Shown piece after piece: positions 25,174 to 25,721 of a stretch of 64,000 nt of DNA. Positions within the stretch are counted from its first letter, which is position 1. Every line of letters begins with the position of its first letter. The DNA comes from a virus. Lineage: Duplodnaviria > Heunggongvirae > Uroviricota > Caudoviricetes > Demerecviridae. The stretch is taken from IMG/VR virus record IMGVR_UViG_3300044984_002785; one strand, written 5' to 3'. The position numbers were made by a program, and so were the translations under genes. A model generated the notes under the pieces. It was not told where the DNA came from. It searched no databases and saw only the letters and a list, made by a program, of their open reading frames with translations.

Positions 25174-25210
25174 TGGTGCTTTAGTTCAAGTAACCAAAGC
25201 ACCATATCTT
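25174..25210 (+). terminator. hairpin (9-10 bp stem) after gene 24901-25167
   Basis: TTGGTGCTTT...AAAGCACCA inverted repeat. Confidence 0.35.
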
Positions 25211-25289
25211 AGCATACTACTTGCCACTTAATAAATATAAGCGGAGTAGCCGTACGCACACCTTCCGCGGGTAACTGGGAGCACCCAGC

Positions 25290-25717
25290 ATAAGTAGTAT
25301 GTTAAGATATGGTTGTATGAAGCCGATAGAAAAATGTTCTGGACGCGGGTTCGACTCCCGCCAGGTCCACCAGGAAGTGTATTGTGTGTTTAGGAGTGGG
25401 GGATACGAACCACGTTAAATAAATAAGTCTACAAAAGCCTAGACACAAGCGCAACAGTACACTTCCTAATGGGCCTGCCATGGTTTCGACAGGGTAGTGA
25501 GTACAAGAGTGGACAACTAGGTAAAGCAGAAGCCTTAGGACTGGGGTTGCCTGGTCGCAGAAGCAAAACAAAAATAACTGCAAACGATCAAACGTACGCA
25601 TTAGCAGCTTAATTGCCGCTTAGGGTTTCGCCAGTTCCTCGTAACAGAATACTGGCACTAAATTTTAGCATATTGCGTCACACTTAATCAGAGTTGACGA
25701 CTCTGAGTTTGCTAAAA
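25290..25717 (+). ncRNA. ssrA: circularly permuted (two-piece) tmRNA gene, tag peptide ANDQTYALAA
   Basis: Acceptor piece end 25341-25372 GGACGCGGG-TTCGACT-CCCGCC + CAGGTCC-A-CCA (near-identical to E. coli tmRNA 3' end). Coding piece starts 25471 GGGCCTG (pairs CAGGTCC) + CCATGGTTTCGACAGGG. Tag ORF 25580-25612 GCA AAC GAT CAA ACG TAC GCA TTA GCA GCT TAA. Spacer 25373-25470 closed by GGAAGTGTA/TACACTTCC stem. Confidence 0.8.
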
Positions 25718-25721
25718 TTTA

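Follow-up and report, generated by a model that had tools for sequence, protein, structure and literature searches.

A window of 64,000 nucleotides of viral DNA, which is the whole stretch analysed here, very probably carries a functional, phage-encoded and circularly permuted ssrA gene of the betaproteobacterial two-piece type within a tRNA cluster, as judged from its sequence and from that of its relatives. An initial annotation of the window had read the locus as a permuted two-piece ssrA in a phage with the tag ANDQTYALAA, and two independent detectors uphold this reading, as do the covarying helices of 17 relatives and the tag frame, which is conserved in 18. The analysis shows what the gene is and how it folds, that the alanine identity pair is in place, that the tag frame is under selection and that the spacer is dispensable.

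Identity and anatomy of the gene

Both of the detection methods that the initial annotation had proposed as checks recognised the locus. ARAGORN called a permuted tmRNA (tmRNA*) at 25280-25703 of the window with the tag ANDQTYALAA, and the covariance models of Rfam 15 gave scores over the curated thresholds for both RF04321 (tmRNA_permuted; 108.4 bits with a gathering score of 47, E = 3.4e-20) and RF01850 (beta_tmRNA; 99.6 bits with a threshold of 84, E = 4.6e-29). The latter stood at the top of the tmRNA clan at the locus with a small margin of ~15 bits over its threshold, and the last (second 3') hairpin of the model was matched poorly.

The order of the gene is permuted, as the CCA end at 25372 lies upstream of G1 at 25471 on the same strand, and this order is kept in all 25 loci of the phage family described below. 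The elements were found at the positions originally given to them (the 3' part of the acceptor piece at 25341-25372, the start of the coding piece at 25471-25494, the tag frame at 25580-25612 and a spacer of 98 nt at 25373-25470), and GGGCCTG pairs with CAGGTCC as had been claimed, with the G3·U wobble included. It was also correct that the spacer is closed by a stem, but this stem is 13 bp long (25373-25385 with 25454-25466) and not 9 bp. The two pieces, initially put at about 85 and about 230 nt, are likelier to measure ~62 nt (25311-25372) and ~190 nt (25471 to ~25659), with putative outer ends. The 3' end of the coding piece was placed where conservation in the family stops and the 3' hairpin begins.

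From 5' to 3' the locus consists of a 5' hairpin, the acceptor piece, the spacer hairpin, the coding piece, a 3' hairpin, a ribosome binding site (RBS) and clpP (Table 1).

Table 1. Features of the permuted tmRNA locus and the downstream ClpP-like gene (window coordinates)
Feature	Position	Strand	Details
5' bracketing hairpin	25201-25313	+	Inverted repeat I2; 22-nt arms ACCATATCTTAGCATACTACTT / AAGTAGTATGTTAAGATATGGT, structured loop of ~69 nt
Acceptor piece, 62 nt	25311-25372	+	RF04321 alignment starts at 25311; putative 5' end
P2 5' strands	25311-25315, 25335-25341	+	Within the acceptor piece
Acceptor piece, 3' part	25341-25372	+	GGACGCGGG-TTCGACT-CCCGCCAGGTCCACCA; sequence check
T-arm stem	25345-25349 with 25357-25361	+	Loop TTCGACT
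Acceptor 3' strand	25362-25368	+	CAGGTCC, then discriminator A (25369) and encoded CCA (25370-25372)
Intervening sequence, 98 nt	25373-25470	+	Predicted to be absent from the mature RNA; 13-bp closing stem, then 4-nt leader TAAT, then G1
Coding piece, ~190 nt	25471-25659	+	ARAGORN, RF01850/RF04321 alignments, per-helix covariation
Acceptor 5' strand	25471-25477	+	GGGCCTG; G3 = 25473; D-loop analogue also in the coding piece
P2 3' strands	25490-25496, 25514-25518	+	Within the coding piece
Two hairpins before the tag frame	25519-25535, 25539-25556	+	Both covary
Tag frame	25580-25612	+	Resume codon GCA, ANDQTYALAA, TAA; ACAAAAATAACT just 5'; ARAGORN
Helix 5	25603-25620 (25603-25608 with 25615-25620)	+	Loop holds the stop codon, like that of one-piece tmRNAs
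3' hairpin, beta-type	25630-25656	+	GCCAG/CTGGC; loop TTCCTCGTAACAGAATA invariant; RF01850 consensus loop CCUUGuuACcaAAg
3' bracketing hairpin	25659-25721	+	Inverted repeat I12; TAAATTTTAGCA / TGCTAAAATTTA; fold z = -4.4
ClpP-like serine protease gene, 194 aa	25734-26318	+	RBS AAGGA at 25725-25729

The 5', spacer and 3' hairpins are all far more stable than shuffled controls (z = -7.0, -5.8 and -4.4, respectively), with folds of -46.8 kcal/mol for the 5' bracketing hairpin (z = -7.0) and -33.1 kcal/mol for the spacer (z = -5.75). With its 3' arm the 5' bracketing hairpin overlaps the acceptor piece by 3 nt; it presumably serves in processing or as a spacer, and it had no Rfam match at E<=1. 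Its loop module is found in the 3' hairpin instead in two of the relatives (L006 and L010). The loop of the 3' bracketing hairpin is likewise variable, with modules swapped among relatives, and 12 nt separate this hairpin from the start codon of ClpP. Hairpins anchored at CCA and carrying shuffled loop modules recur across the tRNA cluster. A permissive Rfam scan of the cluster gave no credible match of the hairpin-loop modules to ribozymes, Y RNA or a riboswitch, and no glutamine riboswitch was detected in the Rfam scans.

Within the acceptor piece, GGTTGTATGAAGC is near-invariant in the phage family. The tag frame of the coding piece reads GCA AAC GAT CAA ACG TAC GCA TTA GCA GCT TAA. The PK1 region before it consists of two covarying hairpins (25519-35 and 25539-56), the second of which is missing from two relatives (L021 and L023), and no pseudoknot pairing was evident there by eye. 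Downstream of the tag frame, the loop at 25635-25651 aligns with high posterior probabilities to the conserved loop of RF01850, and the hairpin at 25630-25656 with its invariant loop thus supports the affiliation of the sequence with the beta type.

Covariation, tag and spacer in related phages

Searching IMG/VR with the downstream ClpP-like protein yielded 49 loci, and 25 of them (L001-L024 and L048; ClpP identity 64-95%) come from the same tRNA-rich phage family. The tmRNA lies upstream of ClpP in every one of these 25 loci, separated by 31-109 nt in most. It was detected by ARAGORN in 19 of the 25, by Rfam in two (L007 and L020) and by an nhmmer profile in the rest, which include two loci truncated by the contig end. 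For the covariation analysis, 17 distinct sequences were aligned (alignment A1) with the middle of the spacer masked and were tested against an explicit structure modelled on the Rfam architecture.

Across these 17 relatives, 94.9% of the cells in the 45 modelled pairs were paired, compared to 29-50% when the 3' partners were slid by 1-3 columns. Changes on both sides were seen in 18 of the 45 pairs, and none of 500 shuffles reached the observed values. The acceptor stem and the T-arm (GCGGG/UUCGACU/CCCGC) were paired throughout (100%), with compensatory changes, three acceptor pairs among them, while the G3·U70 alanine identity pair was unchanged in 17/17. In the P2 helix formed by 25335-41 and 25490-96, five of the seven pairs had double changes and 95% of the cells were paired. 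P2a (25311-15 with 25514-18) is near-invariant and thus uninformative for covariation. In preference to the P2a helix of Rfam, RNAalifold joins the 5' end of the acceptor piece to the tag frame at its 3' end; both pairings involve near-invariant sequence, so that the alignment does not separate them. Helix 5 was paired in 80% of the cells with double changes in two pairs; it has an internal A·C mismatch in most sequences and A-U in four. The stem of the 25630-25656 hairpin covaries (CG/UA/AU/GC) around a loop that is invariant in 17/17. In one subgroup of the family both the T-loop and the D-loop analogue are replaced, giving a variant that has no canonical T-loop.

The tag frame is conserved in the related phages, which the initial annotation had made a test of its claim: 10 codons and TAA are retained in 18/18 relatives, with an invariant resume context. 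Third positions change synonymously at conserved residues (GAT/GAC, GCA/GCT, TTA/TTG/CTA and GCT/GCC), and tag positions 4-5 are variable. The tags of the family are ANDQTYALAA, ANDQVYALAA, ANDTQFALAA, ANDTQFALVA, ANDNTYALAA, ANESVYALAA, ANDESFRIAA and ANDSQFALAA. The tag of the window had been described as E. coli-like, but it fits the general proteobacterial consensus, and that of RF01850 (A-N-D-E-x-F-A-x-A-A), rather than E. coli specifically.

The spacers, on the other hand, are 59-153 nt long in the relatives and unrelated in sequence. A closing stem of 6-13 bp is found in 16/18, beginning 0-2 nt past CCA and ending 4-6 nt before G1. Three spacers (L007, L014 and L023) contain a Shine-Dalgarno sequence and a mini-ORF, and in two loci (L024 and L048) the spacer has a length of ~580 nt and holds an ORF of 183-189 aa bearing an HNH endonuclease signature. 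This variability, together with the HNH insertion, is as expected for a segment that is discarded in maturation. The family thus offers a well-sampled natural series of 25 loci, in which helices covary, the spacer may be as short as 59 nt or as long as an endonuclease gene and a T-loop variant occurs, and from which it could be learnt what a two-piece tmRNA tolerates.

The phage, its ClpP-like gene and the distribution of permuted tmRNAs

By its gene content, the source of the window is an uncultured, divergent T5-like (Demerecviridae-type) phage, which bears out the phage origin assumed in the initial annotation. ARAGORN found 24 tRNA genes in the window, spanning 11.6-28.8 kb. The window also encodes a family-A DNA polymerase, a DnaB-like helicase, a primase, SbcCD, ribonucleotide reductase, a D15-type exonuclease, a split NAD-dependent DNA ligase and a tail fibre of 1673 aa, and the DNA polymerase is 48-49% identical to the enzymes of Vibrio phages such as pVp-1 (Demerecviridae). 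Megablast with 20 kb of the window gave only tRNA-sized matches to deposited phages; therefore, the phage is not a deposited isolate. The exact ClpP-like protein was found in environmental metagenome assemblies only. A gene for a Ro60/TROVE protein (20581-21891) and one for an RNase H-like protein are located near the tmRNA and resemble functions of RNA repair or quality control.

In tblastn searches of the window, which covers 64 kb while the genome should measure some 100 kb or more, nothing below E = 1 was obtained for SmpB, ClpX or SspB; the queries were E. coli sequences, which a very divergent homologue could escape. The tmRNA must therefore rely on the AlaRS, SmpB and EF-Tu of the host. 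A consensus scan for promoters and terminators around the tmRNA revealed none adjacent to it, and fewer sites than in shuffled sequence; thus, the RNA is most likely processed from the transcript of the tRNA cluster by the tRNA-processing enzymes of the host.

The gene downstream of the tmRNA encodes a ClpP-like protein (Pfam CLP_protease 46.6 bits with a cut-off of 20.2; phrog_1827 at 2e-59), in which Ser (GACMSAAT), His (MFHD) and Asp (NKD) fall on the catalytic triad when it is aligned to solved ClpPs. T5-like enterobacterial phages carry a ClpP homologue of ~31-37% identity, and in Yersinia phage phiR2-01 it is flanked by dNMP kinase on one side and the lysis genes on the other, far from any tRNA or tmRNA. 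In a second, tRNA-poor group of phages, the ClpP is 53% identical and a permuted tmRNA is found ~2.7 kb upstream, the two being separated by PhoH, a nuclease and other genes. No tmRNA was found at the ClpP loci L025-L041, L044 and L049. A general linkage of tmRNA and ClpP was considered and rejected: in the fetched flanks of about 100 unrelated tmRNA-bearing viral loci, among the matches listed, a ClpP-like gene was near only 2, and the cultured T5-like phage with ClpP and without a tmRNA contradicts it as well.

Functional coupling of the tmRNA with the ClpP of the phage is an attractive idea, but we consider it rather unlikely; the link may be plain synteny. Also rather unlikely, in our estimate, is the more far-reaching proposal that tmRNA and ClpP form a co-transcribed, phage-controlled module to tag and destroy proteins and, more broadly, that beta-type permuted tmRNAs are a largely phage-borne lineage moving between unrelated phages whatever the form of the host tmRNA. 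If such a module did exist, both the RNA for tagging and the chamber for proteolysis would come from the phage, SmpB and a Clp unfoldase being the only components taken from the host, and truncated host proteins would be cleared and recycled during the takeover. A functional pairing with ClpP would also make this the first virus encoding both the tagging and the degradation halves of ribosome rescue. Taken alone, the tmRNA is one of the auxiliary translation genes that one would expect in a phage rich in tRNAs.

The initial annotation regarded a phage-borne permuted tmRNA as unusual. This does not hold, as such genes are abundant in IMG/VR, are annotated in some Stenotrophomonas phage records and number 53 in a published survey (PMC9004378). 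In that survey, 18,146 phage genomes gave 133 unique tmRNAs, of which ARAGORN called the 53 permuted, and the permuted set includes phages of Stenotrophomonas, Citrobacter, Bordetella, Caulobacter, Synechococcus and Pelagibacter. A tmRNA database from 2025 contains 79 phage tmRNAs and 11,946 permuted tmRNAs, and huge phages also carry tmRNAs (PMC7162821). The exact 32-nt 3' end of the acceptor piece occurs in at least 120 IMG/VR contigs, and ARAGORN called a permuted tmRNA, with 61 distinct tags, in 100 of the 120 contigs among the matches listed. The same 32-mer was present in 11 metagenome-assembled genomes (MAGs), mostly of Bacteroidota, in 185,579 species-representative genomes of bacteria and archaea; ten of these have a one-piece tmRNA with an unrelated tag and one has no ARAGORN call. 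The scan of these 185,579 genomes with the 32-mer thus gave no pointer to a host or donor. Because the 32-mer is frequent in IMG/VR and rare in the species representatives, the sequence data hint that permuted tmRNAs of the beta-like kind are widely shared by phages. Part 1 of the table of phage tmRNAs in PMC9004378 has no T5-like entry, and on this basis the T5-like lineage appears to be new for a two-piece tmRNA, although the type of gene is itself known in phages. The present locus would then add T5-like phages to the lineages with two-piece tmRNAs.

Proposed function and comparison with known systems

Processing, charging and function of the tmRNA we infer from what is established for two-piece tmRNAs. 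The tmRNA would be transcribed within a long transcript of the tRNA cluster on the + strand, its outer ends possibly marked by the flanking hairpins. Host RNase P would cleave 5' of G25471 and host nucleases would trim the spacer back to the CCA at 25372. The acceptor stem of 7 bp and the P2 helices would join the acceptor and coding pieces into a tRNA-like domain. Host AlaRS is expected to load alanine on the G3·U70/A73/CCA end, and together with the SmpB and EF-Tu of the host the tmRNA could then enter ribosomes stalled on truncated mRNAs. Translation would resume at GCA 25580, add (A)ANDQTYALAA and end at the stop codon, so that the ribosome is freed. The end ...YALAA is the canonical ClpXP/ClpAP degron, and tagged fragments would probably be degraded by these proteases. 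As the tag retains this degron, the earlier suggestion that the phage could retarget tagging is unsupported. The likely benefit for the phage would be that ribosomes are kept free and amino acids are recycled while the infection degrades host nucleic acids. The adjacent and probably co-transcribed ClpP of the phage may add proteolytic capacity together with host ClpX or ClpA, which is the least certain step of the mechanism.

In another role, the phage RNA would act as a decoy that titrates the SmpB (or AlaRS or EF-Tu) of the host and shuts down host trans-translation. Mycobacteriophage DS6A, whose tmRNA is TLD-only, has been suggested to use it in this way (PMC4131195), TLD-only molecules strongly inhibit tmRNA, perhaps via titration of SmpB (PMC4131195; PMC11915505), and no SmpB was found in the window. 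However, a decoy would have no need of a whole tag frame, resume context and stop codon, which are kept in 18/18 with synonymous changes, nor of helix 5 and the beta-type 3' hairpin, which are conserved and covarying, and we therefore regard it as very unlikely. That the gene is a passive fragment of the host, left from integration or excision at the host ssrA or captured recently with no role in the phage, seems to us highly improbable. It is true that tmRNA genes are common integration sites and that ssrA fragments occur in prophages (PMC4131195; PMC9004378), and in some of the IMG/VR matches the 32-mer sits right at a contig end. Nevertheless, the present gene is complete and has both pieces, is embedded among the clustered tRNA genes of a T5-like phage that is presumably lytic, and is retained in 25/25 family loci down to a ClpP identity of 64%. 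The compensatory changes indicate selection on its structure, and none of the permuted bacterial genes in the 185,579 species-representative genomes has the same acceptor end.

The location of the tmRNA among 24 phage tRNA genes and near the Ro60/TROVE (20581-21891) and RNase H-like genes would agree with a role in counter-defence, where it mainly rescues ribosomes stalled by abortive-infection nucleases (anticodon nucleases and mRNA interferases) and complements the large tRNA set of the phage. This would refine general ribosome rescue by a phage-encoded tmRNA, our preferred explanation, rather than contradict it. Yet nothing in the sequence distinguishes such a role from general rescue, and we give this specific purpose only a small chance.

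Among known systems, betaproteobacteria are one of three bacterial lineages with permuted ssrA (PMC11915505). Their two-piece tmRNA (RF01850) shares with the phage gene the order of acceptor piece, spacer and coding piece, the tRNA-like domain and P2 helices, a tag of the ANDxxF/YALAA type and the conserved 3' hairpin loop (CCUyGUAAC...). It differs in being encoded by a bacterium and not by a phage. In addition, the T-stem, T-loop and acceptor sequence of the phage gene are off the model consensus, and long hairpins with variable loops flank it on both sides.

Compared to E. coli SsrA, the similarities are G3·U70, the encoded CCA, an A-rich stretch before the GCA resume codon and the stop codon in the helix-5 loop. 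With the charged Ala included, the tag AANDQTYALAA equals AANDENYALAA of E. coli at 9/11 residues. The matching residues include N, D, Y and LAA, which are known to be read by SspB and ClpX, and the tagged products should therefore reach the normal Clp proteases. In contrast to E. coli SsrA/SmpB, the present tmRNA is in two pieces, PK2-4 are absent and there is no cognate SmpB in the window.

According to Table S1 of PMC9004378, the cultured phages with a two-piece tmRNA include the Stenotrophomonas phages Moby, Mendera and Marzo (Menderavirus), Methylophilales phage Melnitz, the Pelagibacter phages HTVC008M and Mosig, phiCbK-like phages of Caulobacter and cyanophages. These resemble our phage in having a permuted ssrA on a large virulent phage, and in Marzo the tmRNA is also located in a tRNA cluster and is of the beta type (94.6 bits, Rfam). 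In its acceptor region the present gene shares 82-85% identity with the copies in Stenotrophomonas and Xanthomonas phages, some records of which are annotated as tmRNA. Melnitz and Mosig differ by a glutamine riboswitch, none of which was detected here in our Rfam scans. Going by part 1 of the table, the present phage is set apart from the cultured ones by its T5-like lineage. The tight linkage to a ClpP-like gene is peculiar to this lineage. The one-piece tmRNAs of mycobacteriophages (the Bxz1 group) and the TLD-only RNA of DS6A are similar in that ssrA is found on tRNA-rich phages, but theirs have the standard order or no tag frame and occur in actinobacteriophages (PMC4131195), whereas the gene described here is permuted, carries a conserved tag frame and belongs to a T5-like phage.

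Variation within the tmRNA gene of the phage family

Comparison of the window with IMG/VR loci of its phage family shows that the tmRNA gene is mosaic, which suggests that recombination has taken place within it: similarities to the window in this gene are out of step with ClpP identity. L006 (1876-2035, compared with window 25311-25470) is identical to the window in the exact 32-nt acceptor 3' end (the 32-mer) and in the 98-nt spacer, yet its ClpP is only 80% identical. When L001 (4123-4263) is compared with the same interval, the acceptor stem, the D-loop region and the spacer differ; the tag is the same and ClpP is 95% identical.

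A subgroup of family loci (L007, L009, L010, L012/L013, L018 and L020; for example, L009:5586-5905) carries GGCAGTG (GACACGCGGGGGCAGTGCCCGCCAGGTCCACCA) in place of the canonical T-loop TTCGACT, and alongside this replacement the D-loop analogue CCATGGTTTCGACAGGG has become ACACAGGATCGACCGGG. The other helices and the tag frame are unbroken in the subgroup, and its tmRNAs still score 91-101 bits against RF04321 (Rfam tmRNA_permuted); ARAGORN did not call some of them. A tmRNA without a TΨC-type loop would be unusual.

The spacer is enlarged to about 580 nt in L024 (4415-4997) and L048 (5126-5703), and inside these enlarged spacers lies an ORF of 183-189 aa that bears the signature of an HNH endonuclease (...HHRNP...CPNCH...). 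A further HNH-like ORF occurs in L024, encoded by the opposite strand in the interval from the coding piece to clpP. The spacers of three other family loci (L007, L014 and L023) contain a mini-ORF with a Shine-Dalgarno sequence.

The 32-mer and the tag in other viruses and in bacteria

Among the matches listed for viral contigs sharing the 32-mer (L050-L169), ARAGORN gave tags of 22-33 aa in 45 of 100 permuted tmRNAs (e.g. L059, L082, L086, L127 and L167), one example being ANADTFDFSAMSFTGNTVRGAANESRFALAA. Each of these long tags is made up of a canonical 10-residue tag preceded, in frame, by a conserved N-terminal peptide (…TFDFSAMSFTGNTV…). Such long tags may be real, or ARAGORN may have picked an upstream resume codon.

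Within the bacterial species representatives the exact 32-mer was found in only 11 MAGs (L171-L181), ten of which have a standard one-piece tmRNA (Saprospiraceae, Lewinellaceae, other Bacteroidota, one Opitutaceae and one Geobacteraceae); the remaining one, of Bacteroidales, had no tmRNA call. That these bacteria share the 32-mer with the phage seems to reflect convergent tRNA-like domains, not common ancestry.

In a public metagenome assembly, a 47-residue gene has been called at the position corresponding to the spurious ORF over the coding piece (see table), and therefore the tmRNA has probably been mis-annotated there as a protein gene.

Hairpins and neighbouring genes in the window

Features of the window around the tmRNA gene
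Feature	Position	Strand	Remarks
Recurrent long hairpin	12475-12587
Recurrent long hairpin	12762-12871
Recurrent long hairpin	15182-15301
Recurrent long hairpin	21956-22047
Recurrent long hairpin	22773-22876
Recurrent long hairpin	25201-25313		5' of tmRNA
Recurrent long hairpin	25659-25721		3' of tmRNA
13-bp minihelix, end ...GCACCA	25174-25204	+	z = -4.6; directly before 5' bracketing hairpin
436-aa protein, TROVE and Ro60-type vWA domains	20581-21891	+	phrog_850; within tRNA cluster
47-aa ORF (MGLPWFRQ...ANDQTYALAA), spurious	25469-25612	+	crosses coding piece; tag is its end
tRNA-like sequence	26438-26525	+	tRNA-Sec model 35 bits, below threshold; just downstream of clpP
NAD-dependent DNA ligase, two adjacent ORFs (316 and 255 aa)	33004-34793	+	separate PHROG family match each

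A long hairpin is repeated through the tRNA cluster. For several copies, the start of the 5' arm coincides with the CCA end of the preceding tRNA-like unit (ACCATAT...), the 3' arm closes with ...ATATGGT, and the structured loop between them measures about 56-76 nt; from relative to relative, loop modules are exchanged between the two sides of the tmRNA. The hairpins matched no Rfam family; they may act as signals for processing or represent small, stable RNA species. The minihelix is similar to a CCA-ended minihelix of the acceptor/T-arm type.

From its domains, the 436-aa protein is a predicted Ro60/Rsr-like RNA-binding protein. No Y RNA was detected at the Rfam threshold, the top candidate being YrlA with 22.8 bits (24113-24205), far under the gathering score. 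The tRNA-like sequence was not called by ARAGORN; it is probably a long-arm tRNA, since in L024 a tRNA-Ser(tga) closely follows clpP. The window also encodes a split NAD-dependent DNA ligase, a hallmark of T5-like phages.
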